This document shows positions 24,893-40,420 of a stretch of 64,000 bases of DNA, one piece after another (position 1 is the stretch's first letter; each line of letters starts with the position of its first letter). Origin of the DNA: Macrostomum lignano (lineage: Eukaryota); the NCBI GenBank assembly GCA_002269645.1, contig NIVC01000866.1:262441-326440 (forward strand), given 5' to 3'. Below the pieces are notes generated by a model, which was given only the letters and a program-made list of their open reading frames with translations, searched no databases and was not told the DNA's origin. A program made the position numbers and the translations under genes.

Positions 24893-27259
24893 TCAGCCGA
24901 TCAGGGGCTTTTCGGAGCCTCTGACTTCGACGACAAACTTGGTACTCGGGACTTTGATCGCTGGTTGTCTCCACTTCAGCAGGAGTCGTAGTCTCCATTT
25001 CCTTCTCCTTGCTGCTGCCAACATTGGCAGGTCTAGGCGAGGTAATCTCTTGTGAGTTCTCTGTAGTCCTTGGCGTTGCATCAGATGCATGGACAACCCG
25101 TCATTTGCTGTCCAAGTAGGTATTTGATCCATGAAGTCCTTGGATTTCTTCTGGGACCTTGTCTGACTTTCCTTCTACGTTGATGTAGACAGGAATTGGG
25201 TAGTTAGCGGTTTGTCCCATTCTGTAAAGGTTGCAGTGAGGCGCGTTCTTGGGCGTTGCATAAACAGTTGTGCAGCAGGAATCGCTCCTTCGGAATTCGG
25301 TGTAGTGTTCTTCGAAAGGCAGAATGATATCAACACCTTCTCACATTCGGAACCTATGTCATTACTGTTCTGCTTCAGGGTCACTTTCAACTCTTGGATA
25401 GCTCTTTCCACAATCCCATTTGACTGGTGATGACCAGGTGGTGTTAGGACATGGTTAATTAGATTCTTCTTGAGAAATTCTGCGAACTATTTTGATCGAA
25501 AATTGGTTCCATTGTCAGTCACAATGCACGTTGGAAGTCCCATGTACTTAAATGTTCGTCTGCATGCTGGAATAAGAGAGTTGGCTGTGAGATTTGACAG
25601 CTGATGTACATCAATCCACCGAGAGAAGGAGTCGATGAGAACCAAGAAGTGTTTCTCCTTGAAGTATGCTATGTCCAGATGAACACGTTCGAAGAAGAAC
25701 TTTGCATCCTCCCATGAATGCAGATTTGCATTTGTTCGCTTTCTCGAATTTAGTTGGCAGGAAGGACACCTTTGAACGAAGCTATTGATCTGGGCGTCAA
25801 TGTAAGGCCACCAGAAGTACTCTCGAGCTAGTCTGATCATGCGCACAATGCCCGGATGATTCTCGTGAAGAATTTGAAGAATTTCTCTGCGCATGGACTT
25901 TGGAGGCACGATTCGGATCCCTTTGAACAGAATCCCGTTTTGAATGGAGTATTCCGCCTTGGATTTGGTGTACGGAAGCAGCTGTTTAGAAATGTAGCTT
26001 GGCCAATCTTGAGTAACAAACTTCTTGATAAAATCAATTTCAGGGTCTCTGGTGTTGGCGACACGCCGAAGAATTGTCCCAGAAGAAGAAAATTCTACGA
26101 GAGATTTTACCTCCAGCAGATTGACATCAAAATTTGAAAACGAAGTAGAAGCGTTTGTTGAAGGAATTCTGGACAGAGTATCTGCTGCGAGCATGGTGTC
26201 TCCTTTTGAGTAAGTGACAGTGTAGTCATAGGATCTGAGCAGCAATGCCCATCTCTGGAGTCTCGCAGAAACTCGGTCAGGAACTTTCGTTGTAGAGAAG
26301 ATGTACTGCAAAGGTCTGTGATCAGAGATGATTGTAAAATGACGGCCTGCCAGAAATTGATGAAAATATTTTACACCCTCGATAATTGCAAGAGCCTCCC
26401 GCTCAATGTTGGCGTAGTTGGCCTCAGCCTTGGTCAAAACTCTGCTTCCCAGCCATACAACTTCTTTTTGGTTCGTGTCGTGGAACAGCACAAATCCGAC
26501 TCCACTCTGAGAAGCGTCGCAGGTTAGAAACAACGGCCTTTTTATATCATAAGAAACGATTCGACCTTCCGTTACAGCAGCTTTCAGTTGGGAGAACGCA
26601 CTTGAGTGAACGACAGTCCATTTCCACTGAACCCCTTTCTTTAGGAGGTAATAGAGCGGCTTGGCGATCATAGAGAAGTTCCGACAAAAAATCCCGTAGT
26701 GTCTAAAGGTGCATATAGCACTTCTCAATTGATCCCGGTCTTTTGGCTCTGACAAGTTGGATAGAGCTTCCACTCTTGCAGGATCAGGCAAAAGTTTCCC
26801 ATCTCGGAGGAGAAATCCCAGAAATGTGACTTCTTTCTTGCACTCCTGAGTCTTACGCTCATTGATCTTGAATCCATGCTTTTTCAGTTTTTCTTTGATT
26901 TGCACCAGGATCTGTCGATGCTGCTCCACTGTTTCAGTGCCTAGAATGATGTCGTCCTGATAAGAAGCAGTGCCTGGTATTCCTTTGAGCAAGATATCCA
27001 TAACTTCCTGAAATATCAGTGGTGCTGCCGATATCCCAAATTGTAACTTGCGGATCGCAAAATGTCCTACGTGGGTGGAAATACACGTACGATCCTGACT
27101 TTCTGGCGTTAGGGGAATCTGCAAGAATGCGCCTTCGAGATCGAGCACTGAATACGCACTTTCGAATTTGGGATCTTTTGAAGGATTTCTTTCAAAGTTG
27201 GCAGTCGATATCGATCTCGGTCTATCCGTCTGTTGAGAGTGACTGAATAGTCTCCACAC
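24893..27259 (-). pseudogene. pol: Gypsy pol: RT-RNase H-integrase, disrupted
   Basis: YSVLDLEGAF, YQDD, LTCDAS, REALAI, HENH..CPSC, HLD..TDNG..VERA. In-frame TAG at 25487-25489 inside the integrase core; a +2 frameshift near 27155. Confidence 0.93.
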
Positions 27260-28674
27260 AGTCTAATGGGTCTCTTTGATCCTTCTGGTTTCAACACAGG
27301 AACAATAGGGCACGATACCTTAGGCGAGTGAACTGGGTAGATGATACCTGCACTTTCCAGTCTTTTCAGCTCCAGTTCAACCAAAGTTTTAATTGAGAAC
27401 GGAAGGGATCTGGCAGGAAAGCACATTCCATCGGCAGAGGCACCGTCCTTCAGGCGAAAGCTGGCCTGGAATCTTGAATTTTCATCACACTGCACTGGAT
27501 GGCACAGAAATTCGTCTACCGTCAATAGGTTGAAGGTACGAATAAAATTCATTCCCAAAATGGCTTGACTAGATGGGTCCCCGACATATATGTCTCCGCA
27601 TGCCGTTTTGCCGTTTCTCAGCTCAATCGTGACGTCCTTAGTCATGCCTCGTACGGAAACTGAAGCTCCCCCGAAAACTTTGAGTGATCGAATGTCCGCG
27701 TCAACCATGTGCAATCCGGCTTGCTCTACGATGGTTACTGGCAGAATTGTTACCTGACTACCAGAGTCGACGCACATATGGACTGTGAAATCACCGATCG
27801 TGCAGACTATTTTCCAGAGTTCGTCGCATGGAGTAGCCTTGATCACCGAGTACACAGCTGAATCAGGTGGATCAGCGTCGGTTGCTTCAACTTCCGCGTA
27901 CGTGACTTTCTTGCTGCCACCGATGTTGGACCTGCATGCTCTGGCAATGTGCCCGGTTTTTCCGCACTTGTGACATGTCGCATTGCGGAACTTGCAGGTA
28001 TTTCTAAGATGACCCGGGTTACCACAGGAATGGTAGCTAGACTTAGAATGATTCGGCGTTGTTGGCATTGGCCTGGATACCGTTGGATACTTTTGGTTGC
28101 TGCCAGTCTTCTTGTGAGTGGTTTTCTGCACTGCTGCGACGGTTTTGCTCGAATCAGTAGCTTGAGATACGGACTCCGATAAGAGACTATCCTTAACCGC
28201 AGTCTCTAGATCCAGCTTTTCCTTCACTAGTAATTTTTGCTTCAGAGAATTATCAGCCAGTCCGAAAATATACTGCGAAAGAATTAACTCTTCTCGCAGG
28301 TTGCCGAATTCGCATTTGTTGGCCTGTGTCTTCAGTCTCTCCAAAAACTTTGTCACCGACTCACCCTGTATTTGGACCATGGTATGTAGCAGATGTCTGT
28401 CGTAGTGAAGAAGGCGCTTGGGTTTCAAGTGGCTCAGTACCGCTTCTTTGATGAAATCGAACGTACACTTTGTATCGTTTAAAACGTCTTCTGGCTGCAC
28501 AAGTGTCTCAATCAGTGAAAATGCGGCATCTCCACACGTAGCAAGTAGAACGGCTTTGCTCTGGTCATTCTTTTCCGTTGCGCTAATGTAAAAACCGAGG
28601 CGCTTGAAATACTGTTCGACATCGGGGTAGCACAGCGGCATCTCCCCCAGTCGGAAGTCGAGTCCGGAAGACAT
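27109..28674 (-). CDS. gag: Gypsy gag-protease-RT N-terminus
   Basis: 521-aa ORF; CHKCGKTGHIARAC knuckle (the first knuckle has C>Y), protease CVDSGSQVT, RT start PIVPVLKP..IRLCGDY. Confidence 0.9.
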   Translation of the reverse strand: MSSGLDFRLGEMPLCYPDVEQYFKRLGFYISATEKNDQSKAVLLATCGDAAFSLIETLVQPEDVLNDTKCTFDFIKEAVLSHLKPKRLLHYDRHLLHTMVQIQGESVTKFLERLKTQANKCEFGNLREELILSQYIFGLADNSLKQKLLVKEKLDLETAVKDSLLSESVSQATDSSKTVAAVQKTTHKKTGSNQKYPTVSRPMPTTPNHSKSSYHSCGNPGHLRNTCKFRNATCHKCGKTGHIARACRSNIGGSKKVTYAEVEATDADPPDSAVYSVIKATPCDELWKIVCTIGDFTVHMCVDSGSQVTILPVTIVEQAGLHMVDADIRSLKVFGGASVSVRGMTKDVTIELRNGKTACGDIYVGDPSSQAILGMNFIRTFNLLTVDEFLCHPVQCDENSRFQASFRLKDGASADGMCFPARSLPFSIKTLVELELKRLESAGIIYPVHSPKVSCPIVPVLKPEGSKRPIRLCGDYSVTLNRRIDRDRYRLPTLKEILQKIPNSKVRIQCSISKAHSCRFP

Positions 28675-28724
28675 CGGAATGAAGATTTGGTGACTGCAGT
28701 ATCGTCCCGCGAAGAATTAAATTT

Positions 28725-33406: not shown

Positions 33407-34641
33407 GTATTTCTTCCTCACTTGGGTCCGGCCATAGACTGCAGAACCGTATTTCTTCCTCACTTGGGTCCGGCCATAGACTGCAGAACCGTATTTCTTC
33501 CTCACTTGGGTCCGGCCATAGAGTGCAGAACCGTATTTCTTCATCACTTGGGTCCGGCCATAAAGTGCAGAACCATATTACTTCCTCACATGGGTCTGGC
33601 CATAGACTGCAGAACCGTATTTCTTCCTCACTTGGGTCCGGCCATAGACTGCAGAACCGTATTTCTTCCTCACTTGGGTCCGGCCATAGAGTGCAGAACC
33701 GTATTTCTTCATCACTTGGGTCCGGCCATAAAGTGCAGAACCATATTACTTCCTCACATGGGTCCGGCCATAGACTGCAGAACCGTATTTCTTCCTCACT
33801 TGGGTCCGGCCATAGACTGCAGAACCGTATTTCTTCCTCACTTGGGTCCGGCCATAGACTGCAGAACCGTATTTCTTCCTCACTTGGGTCCGGCCATAAA
33901 GTGCAGAACCGTATTTCTTCCTCACTTGGGTCCGGCCATAAAGTGCAGAACCATATTTCTTCCTCACTTGGGTCCGGCCATAGAGTGCAGAACCGTAATT
34001 CTTCCTCACTTGGGTCCGGCCATAGAGTGCAGAACCGTATTTCTTCCTCACTTGGGTCCGGCCATAGAGTGCAGAACCATATTTCTTCCTCACTTGGGTC
34101 CGGCCATAAAGTGCAGAACCATATTTCTTCCTCACTTGGGTCCGGCCATAGAGTGCAGAACCATATTTCTTCCTCACTTGGGTCCGGCCATAGAGTGCAG
34201 AACCGTAATTCTTCCTCACTTGGGTCCGGCCAAGGACTGCAGAACCGTATTTCTTCCTCACTTGGGTCCGGCCATAGAGTGCAGAACCATATTTCTTCCT
34301 CACTTGGGTCCGGCCATAAAGTGCAGAACCATATTTCTTCCTCACTTGGGTCCGGCCATAGAGTGCAGAACCGTATTTCTTCCTCACTTGGGTCCGGCCA
34401 AGGACTGCAGATCCGTATTTCTTCCTCACTTGGGTCCGGCCATAGAGTGCAGAACCATATTTCTTCCTCACTTGGGTCCGGCCAAGGACTGCAGAACCGT
34501 ATTTCTTCCTCACTTGGGTCCGGCCATAGAGTGCAGAACCATATTTCTTCCTCACTTGGGTCCGGCCATAGAGTGCAGAACCGTATTTCTTCCTCACTTG
34601 GGTCCGGCCATAGAGTGCAGAACCATATTTCTTCCTCACTT
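33407..34641. repeat. 42-bp minisatellite (GTATTTCTTCCTCACTTGGGTCCGGCCATAGAGTGCAGAACC)
   Basis: About 29 units; produces spurious 14-aa-repeat ORFs. Confidence 0.97.
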
Positions 34642-34790: not shown

Positions 34791-35151
34791 CAATGCTATC
34801 CCCATGCAGTTAAGGGGATCACCTTGTGGCTCTTGCCTCTTTGCGTGTGGTATTTACAACTGTTGCGACACCAAAAAAGAATTGAAACCCTAAATGTAAG
34901 AGTCGGTTAATTCCTTAAAAACAGCTTTTTGGAAATTCTAAATCGTAAATTGTAAATCTGACTTAGTCAGCAACTTACCGTACAGCACTGAAATCGCTGC
35001 AAATGAGTTGTAAAAGTTTTCAATGAAGAAGATTAACAGTAAATTTTATTTAACTAGTTAGTGCCAAAAACTGTCAGAATTACTAAATTCACGGCTGCTG
35101 ATGTTTCTGTTGTTGTTGTTGTTGTTGTTGTTGTTGATTGCGGTGAGCATC

Positions 35152-36342
35152 TCACAGGGGCCGCCAGTCGATGGCTCCCAGGAGCTGCGCCACCATATCC
35201 CCACGTGCAAAGTCGCTCAGACTAGTGGCGCCGATGTTGCGGCGAATTGTTTCGAGCCTAGGGCAGGTCCAGAGGTGGAATTGGTCCGGGACATCCAGGC
35301 AAAGACGGCAGGGGCCGCCATCGGAGATGCCTGTGCGGTTGCGATAGTTAGTTGGAGTCAGGGCAGTGGCCTGCTCTGACTTGCGCCACGAGGATTTGTT
35401 GGCGGCGTGGTCCCTGATGGAAGGAGATCGGTTTACCGTAGACCTCGGCCATGTGCCCTTGAAGGGTTGGACGGTACTTGAGATGATGACGAATGCGCTC
35501 TTTAGCGGCTGCAAAGGATATTTCGGACTCGTCCTGTGGCAGGGTGGCCGCGAGCTAAGCCTCTGCGTCGACCAGTTCGTTACCGGGCACTCCGAATGTC
35601 CCGGAACCCATTGCAGGGTAATCTTCGTGTGCATGGCTGCGTTAGCAAGGAGATCTTTAACTTGCTCAAGCCGCAGGTTGAGGGTTGGACGGTCAGCTTT
35701 GATGGCGGCGATGGCGCTCTGGCTGTCGGTTAGAATGACGGCTTGGCGCGGCTCGGAGCTGATAATGTCTTCCAGGGCGAGCTTGATGGCCATTAATTCG
35801 GCTTCATAGGAGTTGCACCAGCGACCCGCTGCTGCGTGCCCGCGGCGACGCATGGTGCTTTCTTGGTCGAGGAGGATCCATGCGGCTCCGCCGTTTTCGA
35901 CCCCTCCGGTGGCCGAGCCATCCGTGTAGTAGGTGCAGGAACCTGGGCAGCGTTGCTCGATGGCTGTAAAAATTTGTTCGGTTGGAGTTGCTCCCAGGTC
36001 TGGCAGGTTGGTGAAACAGTCGATGCCCAGGTCGACAAGAGAGGCCCAGGGTGGCCGACGGGTAAGGTGGAAGGGCATGCGCGGGAGCGGCATCATGGAG
36101 TCGCAGATGCGCCTCGCTTGTTCGCGCAGGCCTCTGTTAGCCTCAAGACGGACGTTCGAGTGCCTTTCGCAGATCTTGCGAAGTGGGTCGCTGAGAGGGC
36201 GACGGATGGCTTTCTCGTAGGTGAGCAGAGCACGCCTGCGGGCCTCAACGCTGATGGGGTCGACCTGAGCTTCCAGGTAGATAGCGGTCGAGCTCATCCA
36301 GGCGAGTCTTGGACAGCCAGGGCGTCCAGGCCGATGCTGCAT
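35152..36342 (-). pseudogene. LINE RNase H and C-terminal zinc knuckle
   Basis: YYTDGS, EAELMAI, ILTDSQSAI, WVPGHS, CRLC..HLWTCP; frameshift after PGHS. Confidence 0.88.
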
Positions 36343-37429
36343 GCCAGATCACCGACTCGACCAGAGCACGGTTGACTTTGATCAGGAGGAGGCGATCCCA
36401 TCCCCATTCCCGGTTGGCTAAAGCTTTGATGATGGCGGTTCGACGGAGCATTTTGTTCTTGATTTCGCTCAGGTGTTTGTCGAAAAGAAGACCGCGGTCA
36501 ATCGTGACCCCGAGGAATTTCAGCGCCAGCTTGCTGGGGATAGGACGGCCAAGCATCGAGAGTTGAACGGTGGTGTCGCGATCGGCTCGGTTTCGGGAGA
36601 ACAGACAGTATTCAGTCTTCGACGGGTTGACCTCGATGCGAAGATTTTTGGCCCACTTTTCGATGAGGCGGAGGGCCCTTTGAATGCGTTCACGGACATG
36701 TTTCTGCCGGACACGGTGATGTTTCTGCCGGAGGCCCAGATAACGAGGTCGTCCGCGTATCCACTGTAATCGACATCTTGGACGATGTGGTCAGCCCAGG
36801 CGTTGATATAAAGAAGGAACAAGACCGGGGGCTGACGGCGCCTTGCGGGACGCCCTCCCGGAGCCTGCGCCATTTTCTGCCTGCCCAGCTGGCAGAGCTG
36901 GCAAATCATCTCACCATACAGGCCGGCAGGCCTTCATCCATCAGGCGGGAGATGAGCAGGGTCCTCCAGACGCGGTCGAAAGCGCACGAGCAGTCGATCA
37001 GTACTGCTAGGGTCTTCAGGTGCGGAGACTGTTCCCAGCCGTCCTGGATGGCCTGGACCAGTCGGGCCACTTGCTCCTCACAGCTACGGCCGCGCTGGAA
37101 ACCGGCTTGCCAGGAAAGGATTTTATTGCGTTGCTCCAGCCAGTGAAAGAGGCGGTCCAGGATCAACCTCTCCAGATTTTACAACAGATAGAGATGAGGC
37201 TGACGGGGCGGTAGCTTCCACACTCTTTGGGGTCTTTTCCGTCCTTCAGCAGCGGGATGATGACGGCCTTTTTCCAGGCTCCTGGGCAAAGGCCGATGCT
37301 CCAGCAGCGATTGAAGATTTTCAGCCAAGCGTTGAGCCAGGAATCAGGGAGATTAATGAAGAAGGCGGCCTCAATGCCGTCGGGGCCGCATTTTTTGCTA
37401 GGATCTAGTTTGTCGATGGCCCTCCGCAA
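36245..37429 (-). pseudogene. LINE reverse transcriptase (frameshifted fragments)
   Basis: WKKAVIIPLLK, YRPVSL, QAGFQRGRS, IDCSCAFDRV, PVLFLLYI, YADD, KFLGV. Confidence 0.92.
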
Positions 37430-37482
37430 CTCTCCTGTAGTGAAAGGAAGGTGGTAGTTGAGATCGTCGGAGTGGTAATTAG

Positions 37483-39491
37483 CTAGCCTGTTGGCAGTGT
37501 TGACCTGACCTTAAACTTGCGGTCAGCTGATGTCAGGTGAAGGGAGCTGATGTCTTTGTAGTGGCGGCCGAAGGCGTTCGCCTTGTCCTTGTCAGTGCAA
37601 AGTTCGCGTCCGTCAACAACCAGAATTTCATTGGGTTTCGACCCTTGTCTTCCGTTGTTGAGGCAATTGATGGTTCTCCAGGTCTGTTTGGGGTCGGAGG
37701 ATTCTGACAGTTTGTGCACGTACTCCTTCCAGAAAGCGCTTTTCTTGTCGGCGCAGAGCTTGCTGAGTTCAAGGCTCTTTTCCCTCCAGAGGTCGGGCGG
37801 GGCGCCAGACTCACGGAGTTGGTTCCGTGTATTCCTGAGTTCGATCAGTTCCTCGTCCCAGTACGGCTTATTCTTCTTAGAGACCTTCTTTTTCGGAATA
37901 GCGGCAGAGGCGGCAGTCAGCATGCCGTTGCAAAGGCGGGTGACTTGCTGCTTAATGGTACCGCGGTTGAGATTGGTATCGGCCGCTTCGAGCAGGGACC
38001 TGTAGACTGGCCAGTCAGCTTTCTTCCAGGACCAGTGGAACTGATTGGGCTCGGCAAGGGTGTTCCGGGGCGCTTGCAGCGTCACAAGGATGGGTTTGTT
38101 ATCGGAGCCAAGTTCATTCAAAACAGTCCAGGTGCACTGGGGGGCAAGTCCGCCGCTGGCAATGGTGAGGTCGGCGGCGCTGTTACGACCGGAATGGCGG
38201 TCGACACAGGTGTGTTCACCAGTGTTCAGAATGCGGTACTGAGAGGTGGAGCACCAGTCAAGGAGGCATTTGGATTGAGCAGCGCTGTCTCTGCCTTGGT
38301 CTCCCTTGCTGCCCCAAGCTGGATGATGGAGATTCAGATCCCCAGTGATGAGTTCGCGGTTGTGACATTTGAGCCAGTCATCCACGCTCGGGTGCTCTCG
38401 GTGGTCTTCGCCTTCCACCCGCCGGATGGGGGGGGGCGGTAGATATTGGAGATGATCAGCTTATTTCTGGCGGAGTCATTGATGACGAAGCGACATCTTT
38501 CAGTGGTGCCGCCTGACCATCCCCGGAGTTTACGAAATGGAATGCCTTGCCGAATGTAGCACAGGAGGCCGCCTCCTTTGATGTTGGGGTCGCGCCTTGC
38601 AACTTTTCGGTCTTTGCGGATCACAGCGAACCCTGGCAGTTTGGGAGTCTTGTGGAACGATGTGAGCTTACTTTCTTGGACAGTGATGATATCAGCTTGG
38701 ACCCTGTGAGCAAGCTCTTCGAGCTCTCCGATCTTGTTCGAGATGCCGTCCGCATTCCACTGGATAATTCTAAGGTTCGGCTTAGCATTGTTCCAGCCGG
38801 ACAGGATGCGCGGGAGGTGTCTCAGGGGTCCAGAGGGGTCATCTTCAGACGGAGATGTCGGGCTCGGCCGGCGGGCAGCATTAGAGCAGCAGTTGTATCT
38901 CCAGAGACCTCGGCTGACTTCGCGTTTGATCTGCTCCCGTGTCGCAGCCGTGCACGCATTGTGGAAGAAGCCTTCGCAGGTATTACAGCAGGCGATGACG
39001 GAGCTGACCCTGACGGGTTTGTTACAGTGGGCGCAATTTGGTTTCTCTTCGCGGAGGCGACGGAGGAGCTCTTCACGTCTGCTGTATCCACGATTGGCGC
39101 CATCAGCAGGTTCCTCTGGTGAACCGGTGGCCTGGTTGCCGGGATCGGTGTCCGGGCCGCCAGAGCAGGTTGGGCAGCGCCAGTCGGGAGAACCGATCTT
39201 TTTGTCGGCCGCCCAGCGGCTGAGGCCGGAGCAGTCACGTTGGAGGTGAAAATCATGCCCGCATGGTTGGCAGTGAAGGGATCTCCCTCGGAGGGGGCGA
39301 CCACACTCACGCCGCCCACAGATACGAGTATGAGTCGGGCCTGGACCTGGGTTCGGCTCGATGTCACCGGCCCTGAGCAGGAGCGTTGAGAGCCGGCGTG
39401 CCTCGCTGCCAGCGTTTCCGGTGTCGCAACCAAGGTACACCCTGCTGGAGAAAATCGCGAAACACAAAAGCAACAGTTGCACGTGGGACAT
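37483..39491 (-). pseudogene. LINE N-terminal leader/2A, two PHD fingers and APE endonuclease
   Basis: ATG at 39491; DIEPNPGP; two Cys/His fingers; IIQWNADG, VQESK, NIYRPP, TGDLNLH, DLTI, GSDN(H); frameshift at the G9 run 38428-38436. Confidence 0.9.
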
Positions 39492-39515
39492 GGTGTCCGA
39501 TTTACGGCGCTCTTC

Positions 39516-39517
39516 GT

Positions 39518-39549
<32 letters not shown>

Positions 39550-39803
39550 ATGATGTTGTTGTTGTTGTTGATGATGCTGTTGTTGTTGTTGTTGATGATG
39601 ATGATGTTTTTGTTGTTGATGATACTTTTGTTGTTGTTGCTGTTGTTGTTGATGTTGATGATGTTGTTGTTGTTGATGATGATGATGTTGTTGCTGTTGT
39701 TGTTAATGATGATGATGTTTTTGCTGTTGTTGTTAATGATGATGATGTTGTTGTTGTTGTTGATGATGATGTTGTTGCTGTTGTTGTTAATGATGATGTT
39801 GTT
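39516..39803. repeat. Mixed (AAC)/(ATC) trinucleotide tract in the LINE 5' region
   Basis: Seen directly (GTT/GAT on the plus strand); in frame with the LINE ORF. Confidence 0.95.
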
Positions 39804-40420
39804 CCTGTTGATCCTGCACTGCTGTCCTCCCGCTGCGGTTGTTGCTGTTGCTGCAGGAGGCTGGCCCGCCAGGCCAAGCACAGCCAGGACCCCAGCCAGC
39901 AGAAGCTCTGGCAGCCTCCCTCGGGAACTCCTTACTCGATTACGAGACTCTGCTTCCCACTTTCGCGAGTGATACTTTACTTCAATACTAGGACATTCTT
40001 GAAGCCGGAACTCAAGTAGAAAGCAGCAGGTATCGGAAATCAGCGCTGTTAATTAGGTAATTTGCTCAAAGCAGAAATGAGAATCACCCAGCCCAGGAGG
40101 CGCAGTAATTTGATGTCTGTGATGATATAAATACTTGAAACTGCAAACCGGCTGGCCTTTGTGATGGCATTGCTTTGATTCCCGAGTCCCGAGCCTCAGG
40201 AAAATGGTGCGACAGTCTGCGCCTGCTCTGTCAAACAGCTGGTCTTGAAGGTGACCCGCGGCTGGCTATGAAATTAGCAATTAGGAAGCTCTTCTCTGCG
40301 CGCAGGTGTTAAATGCATAGATCAGATAGATATGCGCAATGTGGGCGCATGTACTTATAGTCGGGCACAAGCAGACTTTAGGAATTGTAGTGCTAGTGTC
40401 TCTGACTATGTAAGGTCAGT

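Follow-up and report, generated by a model that had tools for sequence, protein, structure and literature searches.

A 2A-bearing LINE lineage of Macrostomum lignano that may borrow its translation start from host polyglutamine codons

LINEs that combine a single ORF, a 2A motif, an APE-RT-RNase H protein and a 5' ribozyme are described as the Ingi clade (PMC3708506, PMC5814959, PMC5786205 and PMC13708176; all papers are cited here for selected sections), and RNase H is what separates Ingi from Vingi elements (PMC13708176). A 2A in Ingi-clade elements, with a PHD finger between the 2A and the APE endonuclease, has already been published (PMC3708506); the presence of a 2A in a LINE, which was the finding of an earlier sequence-only reading of the present locus as first written, is already known. 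The motif by itself is insufficient for ribosomal skipping (PMC3708506). The leucines upstream of it are important, and in one screen 43 of 580 2As from RT elements were highly active and 56% were mid-range (bioRxiv 10.64898/2026.09.24.754024). The cited sections of PMC3894237 and PMC3708506 leave open why LINEs carry a 2A and how translation of single-ORF elements begins. Here we describe a 2A-bearing LINE in a window of 64,000 nucleotides (the whole stretch of Macrostomum lignano DNA that was analysed) and compare it with its relatives. What is new is a proposed use of the 2A by the surrounding family, and this use can be tested.

The element in the window

All features of the element lie on the reverse strand. 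The ATG at 39491 opens a frame that encodes the peptide previously read from it, with the Gly of NPG/P (the slash marks the Gly-Pro junction) as residue 49, so that the leader of 49 codons spans 39345..39491. DIEPNPGP lies at 39365-39342, where it had been placed, and with the preceding Gly codon at 39368 it forms the 2A core GDIEPNPG/P (39342..39368), the sole such motif in the six frames of the window. It agrees with the core of class A 2As, GD(V/I)ExNPG/P, and the leucine-rich segment typical of that class, here LSTLLLRA, lies just upstream. A DNA search with the window element returned 23 matches, namely eight copies of the window family (family A), six of a sister family (family B) about 70% identical to it in DNA, and nine fragments. 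Between families A and B, pN/pS was 0.31 for the 2A, 0.25 for PHD and 0.23 for APE. Two of the seven family-A copies that have the core carry NPGL instead of NPGP. Motif, position and conservation, together with the Ingi-clade literature (PMC3708506), thus bear out a 2A in a LINE, and from its sequence we predict skipping at the window 2A.

Downstream of the 2A we found a PHD finger (39165..39320; PF00628, E 9e-4, under the curated cut-off) and a second Cys/His cluster (38886..39035), which is PHD-like by its conserved Cys/His columns in the alignment and has no separate Pfam match. The APE endonuclease (38089..38765; PF03372, PF14529) is split by a frame change near 38433, and the reverse transcriptase (36500..37510, with YADD at 36759) was recovered as pieces of PF00078 separated by frame changes and one in-frame TGA. 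An RNase H domain (35569..35937; PF00075, E 2e-11, with matches to RNase H structures in the PDB) is also present, beyond the PHD-APE-RT order first described. The element closes with the ORF stop codon, a 3' UTR of 15 nt and an (AAC)n tail (35108..35154, the tail at 35108-35136). With the natural ORFs of sister copies as a guide, it carries about eight frame changes in addition to the in-frame TGA, and the frame closes 344 codons past the motif; the PHD-APE-RT protein that skipping had been expected to free is impossible from this copy. It is also 5'-truncated, since only the last 12 nt (39505..39516; J4/2 and the 3' strand of P2 of an HDV-like ribozyme fold) are left of the 110-nt structured 5' end seen in sister copies. 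Its insertion site is an (AAC/ATC)n microsatellite (39516..39812). At the empty homologous site (L187) the repeat is unbroken and has stops in all three frames; the site is non-coding, which rules out a host exon around the window copy. No RNA record was found to contain the window family; contigs in four presumed-RNA runs cover it, a coverage that does not settle expression. The window copy is a dead, 5'-truncated single-ORF LINE of PHD-PHD-APE-RT-RNase H order with an Ingi-type architecture.

That architecture extends to the relatives. Full-length copies have about 250 nt between the 5' end and the 2A, leaving a single ORF and no ORF1, domain searches found APE, RT and RNase H, and the 2A is N-terminal in the window element and its relatives. 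We assign the elements to the Ingi clade by architecture, because the RT tree, built by a quick method and leaving out seven loci that lacked a 170-aa RT match, holds no named Ingi or L1Tc reference. No named Ingi or L1Tc protein was among the homologues returned by protein searches, and the ESM Atlas gave matches to generic RT clusters only. One homologous protein (P0034) has two 2A-like motifs in its leader. Elsewhere in the window, 25175-28716 (reverse strand) holds an LTR retrotransposon with gag-protease and RT-RNase H-integrase in a Gypsy-like order, in three overlapping or adjacent ORFs, and 33407-34641 holds a minisatellite of 29 copies of 42 nt, 94% alike and open in several frames, which is also found in L187.

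Reading frame and 5' ends of the relatives

A nine-codon 2A pattern had 122 exact matches in genome G000 and none with the reversed control, compared with about 0.05 expected from base composition; these matches are not due to chance. We surveyed reading frames at the first 100 listed of the 122 sites, partly via representatives, and at the loci from the DNA search, which together amounted to 99 distinct sites; these fall into 32 clusters, of which one is a family-A fragment. A CAA/CAG run lies at most 330 nt upstream of the 2A in 21 of the 32 clusters. By majority of copies the run is in the glutamine frame relative to the 2A in 15 of these 21 families, with two tied and four not (binomial 4e-4, where the families share ancestry and some copies are duplicated segments); by copies, the frame is Gln in 41 of 55, Asn in seven and Thr in seven. 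Distances from run to 2A range from 138 to 270 nt in multiples of three, across several deep branches of the RT tree. The stretch between them is free of stops in the 2A frame in 19 of 21 representatives (those of three families having been chosen as the intact-looking copy); the other two frames are stop-free in 9 and 4, and shuffles predict 5.6. The leaders of families f0, f8 (family B) and f16 lack an in-frame AUG, and those of f7, f12 and f13 have one only within six codons of the motif, inside the 2A helix.

Family A is one of the four exceptions, with four of its five repeat-junction copies out of the Gln frame; the exceptional copies carry a truncation, a 14-nt deletion or a 1-nt deletion, while the undeleted 5' ends (L006, L008, L017) are in the Gln frame. 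The window copy itself is in the Asn frame, within its non-coding repeat. As a control, albeit a weak one, 3' tails were also in frame in 7 of 15 families (Fisher p 0.18). Upstream of the junction, the Gln frame does not as a rule stay open for longer than the other frames; most copies do not lie in genes. Outside the flatworm assembly, 13 of 22 metagenome loci have a 2A; in three of the 13 the frame stays open from a CAA/CAG run that is read as Gln and in one from a run read as Thr, four have an ATG at -55, and the remainder have no clear run.

Different 2A-bearing families also occur in head-to-tail arrays (G000 contigs C497, C273, C734, C1896 and C255; L144, L145, L075, L138), each element lying within or close to the repeat tail of its predecessor. 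We rejected read-through from a tandem copy upstream, as the ORFs end in a stop and the tails lie in mixed frames (7/3/5).

Full-length copies begin with the 110-nt structure. In 15 such 5' ends it can be drawn as a nested double pseudoknot (P1, P1.1, P2, P3 and P4, the order of HDV-like ribozymes), in which 94% of cells are paired and 19 of 33 pairs show compensatory changes, in P1, both pairs of P1.1, P2 and P3. The pairing exceeds that of all 500 shuffles and all slid controls, in a comparison that favours the fold, since it was drawn from the same 15 ends that scored it. P4 hairpins folded in all five families tried, and the C before (G/A)AAG, the J4/2 cytosine, is invariant in 15 of 15. 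We predict from this model that the 5' end cleaves itself. The Rfam HDV model gave no match on family A, and RF02682 scored 29.5, 26.3 and 23.4 bits in its kin, below the gathering cut-off of 44; this may be because two hairpins split P1. An Rfam scan of 16 loci returned sub-threshold matches only, mostly repeat noise; in the host-inserted element described below, the HDV model, at a sub-threshold score, starts exactly at base +1. By eye, families f16 and f17 (L054, L061, L063, L073) show two hairpins followed by an HDV-like core of different sequence. We further noticed short elements, about 250 nt long, that combine the same ribozyme 5' end with a tail of CAA (L014:2092-2203, L017:1714-1839, L103:5584-5696, L016, L021), apparently non-autonomous derivatives and often in tandem with full-length copies.

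Host-gene insertions and the start of translation

One homologous protein, P0037, which its source labels as Macrostomum lignano, joins a COMPASS-Shg1 domain (E 8e-9, over the cut-off) to QQQQ, a leader, DVERNPG/P and a complete PHD-APE-RT-RNase H protein. Contig C221 of G000 encodes exactly this protein: exon 1 (78 codons) is followed by a GT-AG intron of 500 nt, then by exon 2 and by the element, whose frame stays open for 1405 codons past the 2A. Two other copies of the Shg1 gene have no insertion, with nine and seven Gln codons at that place, and the insertion is flanked by a 12-nt target duplication. In run X11, a single contig of 2081 nt consists of a 23-nt non-genomic piece, exon 1 with the intron spliced out, exon 2 and more than 1,290 nt of the element, uncut at the junction. 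The junction of the 23-nt piece lies at a genomic AG, and the piece matches the spliced leader as published (PMC8629364). Run X12 gave a short contig with the filled junction as well as the empty form, and run X15 the empty form plus an element contig of 4506 nt that comes from a different repeat flank; X1, among the four runs examined, gave no contig bridging the C221 junction. These runs are presumed to be RNA, as splicing and the spliced leader argue, and a contig is not a single molecule. This is the only host-gene fusion with RNA support, at the level of contigs.

The family of the host-inserted element is in the Gln frame in four of five copies, and in the RT tree it falls together with the window family (SH-aLRT 92 with 8 rows and 99 with 13 rows). 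A 5'-truncated copy of the same family (L172, G000 C774:88500-96500) lies out of frame in the Gln run of an APC-like exon, where the host frame meets a stop at once. Polyglutamine-coding exons are thus direct insertion targets, with the Shg1 gene and the APC-like gene both hit. Another family lies in frame behind a BED zinc finger, the one match over the cut-off among seven upstream frames scanned.

We propose that the 2A likely serves to cut the element protein free from a borrowed host start, rather than to make a secreted form, because of the motif, the Gln-frame relatives and the one spliced, in-frame RNA fusion. The endonuclease most likely cuts after CA in CAA/CAG units, judging from the junctions. 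Where the run codes for Gln on the sense strand, as in the one gene seen at the level of DNA and contigs, the host mRNA would carry the element in frame, and the lineage would borrow host promoters and start codons. Ribosomes would translate across the ribozyme region and skip at Gly-Pro, which would release the RT protein, and the ribozyme would later cut at +1 and restore the 5' end of the element. Since uncut junction RNA exists, cleavage would be slow or partial. Because the relatives are open in the Gln frame after CAA/CAG runs, we consider it likely that they are translated as continuations of host polyglutamine exons, with the predicted 2A freeing the protein and the predicted ribozyme freeing the RNA; such insertions would then feed transposition. 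To the fuller reading we give a probability of roughly 0.55: a LINE lineage gave up its own start codon, targets Gln-repeat codons in frame, is transcribed, spliced and translated within the host gene, and is cut out twice, as protein by 2A skipping and as RNA by a slow HDV-like ribozyme.

The conventional alternative is that translation starts at the element's own AUG, with the 2A removing a short leader and lowering the output of RT protein (the role proposed for it in L1Tc and Ingi-1_AC), and that the upstream open frame is incidental. This probably holds at least in part for the window family, whose in-frame ATG, with A at -3, is kept in all family-A copies that reach it and is probably a self-contained start; family A would then probably start at its own ATG as well as at a borrowed one. 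In published elements the distance between N-terminus and 2A is 40-80 aa (PMC3708506), in-frame ATGs occur in families that lack CAA flanks (f1 at -51, f2 at -58, f30 at -24), and the metagenome ATGs at -55 fit the same pattern. However, this model leaves unexplained the leaders without an AUG in sister families and the agreement of 15 of 21 families on one frame, at lengths that are multiples of three, and as a general account we regard an own AUG as unlikely. Family f1 (L039, L049, L056, L057, L110, L124, L134, L142), with a CAA tail, random 5' flanks and an in-frame ATG 51 codons before the 2A, forms a natural contrast to the repeat-targeting families.

The main rival to a borrowed start, in that it predicts the same frame, is initiation fixed by the RNA's own 5' end. 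Translation would begin independently of AUG at or near the ribozyme-cut end, IRES-like or leaderless, with the 2A defining the N-terminus and the Gln frame arising as a by-product of cutting after CA. In nearly all families base +1 occupies the third codon position, and it nearly always follows CA, so that the host repeat and the RNA end cannot be told apart as the source of the frame. Cap-independent translation has been suggested for L1Tc (PMC5814959, PMC3894237), and such a start would work for copies in non-coding repeats. Yet neither a start codon nor a first-codon motif is common to the families, a ribosome that enters downstream of the fold would not require it to be free of stops, and uncut, spliced host-element RNA exists. 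We consider this start improbable and prefer the borrowed one.

If true, a start within host polyglutamine would mean that 2A peptides have a concrete function in LINEs and that host translation can be parasitised in one more way. A specific answer, cheap to test in a laboratory flatworm, comes from the frame rule together with the Shg1 fusion. We did not find such a model in the literature on non-LTR and Ingi 2As, polyglutamine and microsatellite targets, nor is it proposed in the cited sections of PMC3894237, PMC12338488 and bioRxiv 10.64898/2026.09.24.754024. Repbase or earlier accounts of Ingi may already record CAA targeting or leaders without an AUG.

The leader and comparison with known systems

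The sequence-only reading took the leader for a signal peptide that would route unskipped product to the secretory pathway, or yield a secreted micropeptide. Residues 4-14 (39450..39482) do form a hydrophobic stretch, with an 11-residue Kyte-Doolittle mean of 2.75 in family A and 3.11 in family B, compared with 0.24-1.44 in five other families. Only the coding frame of A and B yields the stretch, in whose codons T is enriched at the second position (8-9 of 11, 9 of 12). Aligning the copies, the check suggested with that reading, showed that the 2A is kept, whereas the leader ATG is private to family A and the stretch is common only to A and B. All six family-B copies have ACG or CCG in place of the ATG while keeping the stretch, and among the seven families with a common 5' end the ATG occurs in one and the stretch in two, so that an initiator Met and a hydrophobic core come together in one of seven. 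Between A and B the stretch has a pN/pS of 0.76 over 20 codons, which is not decisive because the numbers are small and signal peptides evolve fast. A 2A-like motif occurs in 57 of 176 stored homologous proteins, and one of the 57 has a comparable stretch at least 15 residues before it, in a count where starts are gene-caller guesses and many leaders are cut short. The leader has no basic n-region, and a nuclear RT and endonuclease would have no evident use in the ER. Even though sea-urchin NLRs provide a precedent for dual targeting by a 2A (PMC4981915), the signal-peptide idea is weak and very improbable, and as a conserved family trait, with dual localisation, it is rejected on the sister families, the homologues and pN/pS. 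The 49-aa peptide is most likely a throw-away leader.

We also considered the leader as a splice acceptor that would bring a spliced-leader AUG into frame. In A and B an AG does close the T-rich stretch, but it lies in phase 2, and no joint to it was seen in the contigs of the four presumed-RNA runs; this candidate was rejected. Separately, seven family-A 5' fragments (L016-L022; G000 C1914, C4663, C4530, C4122, C1451, C521, C1) end at the Leu-rich codons of the leader and pass into (GTT)n. As the Leu-rich stretch is a CAA-like target on the opposite strand, related elements appear to insert head-on into the leader.

Among known systems, the sea-urchin NLR signal sequences also combine an N-terminal hydrophobic sequence with a 2A (Roulston et al. 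2016, PMC4981915). There, however, the gene is cellular and the signal function was tested and overlaps the 2A, whereas in the flatworm about 27 residues separate the end of the stretch from the motif, and the stretch lacks conservation. In 2A-bearing CR1, Crack, L2 and Rex1 elements the 2A again lies 40-80 aa from the N-terminus, in some with a PHD between 2A and APE; the roles proposed in the cited sections are down-regulation and separation of an N-terminal product, and not release from a host-encoded N-terminus (Odon et al. 2013, PMC3708506; bioRxiv 10.64898/2026.09.24.754024). Closest are the Ingi LINEs L1Tc (Trypanosoma cruzi), ingi and Ingi-1_AC (Aplysia), which share the single ORF without ORF1, the N-terminal 2A, APE-RT-RNase H, an HDV-like ribozyme cutting before base +1 and short non-autonomous derivatives (PMC3708506, PMC5814959). 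The flatworm elements differ in a ribozyme P1 split by two hairpins (families A, B and kin) and in two PHD-like fingers after the 2A. They are also inserted after CAA/CAG units, with a 5' region open in the Gln frame and often without an AUG, and neither trait appears in the Ingi descriptions in the cited sections of PMC3708506 and PMC5814959. R2 elements resemble them as target-specific LINEs that are co-transcribed with host RNA and freed by an HDV-like ribozyme (PMC13708176). In the flatworm lineage, unlike R2, the start of translation would be borrowed too. What R2 takes from its host is transcription alone, by way of a non-coding rRNA unit, and its endonuclease is restriction-like.
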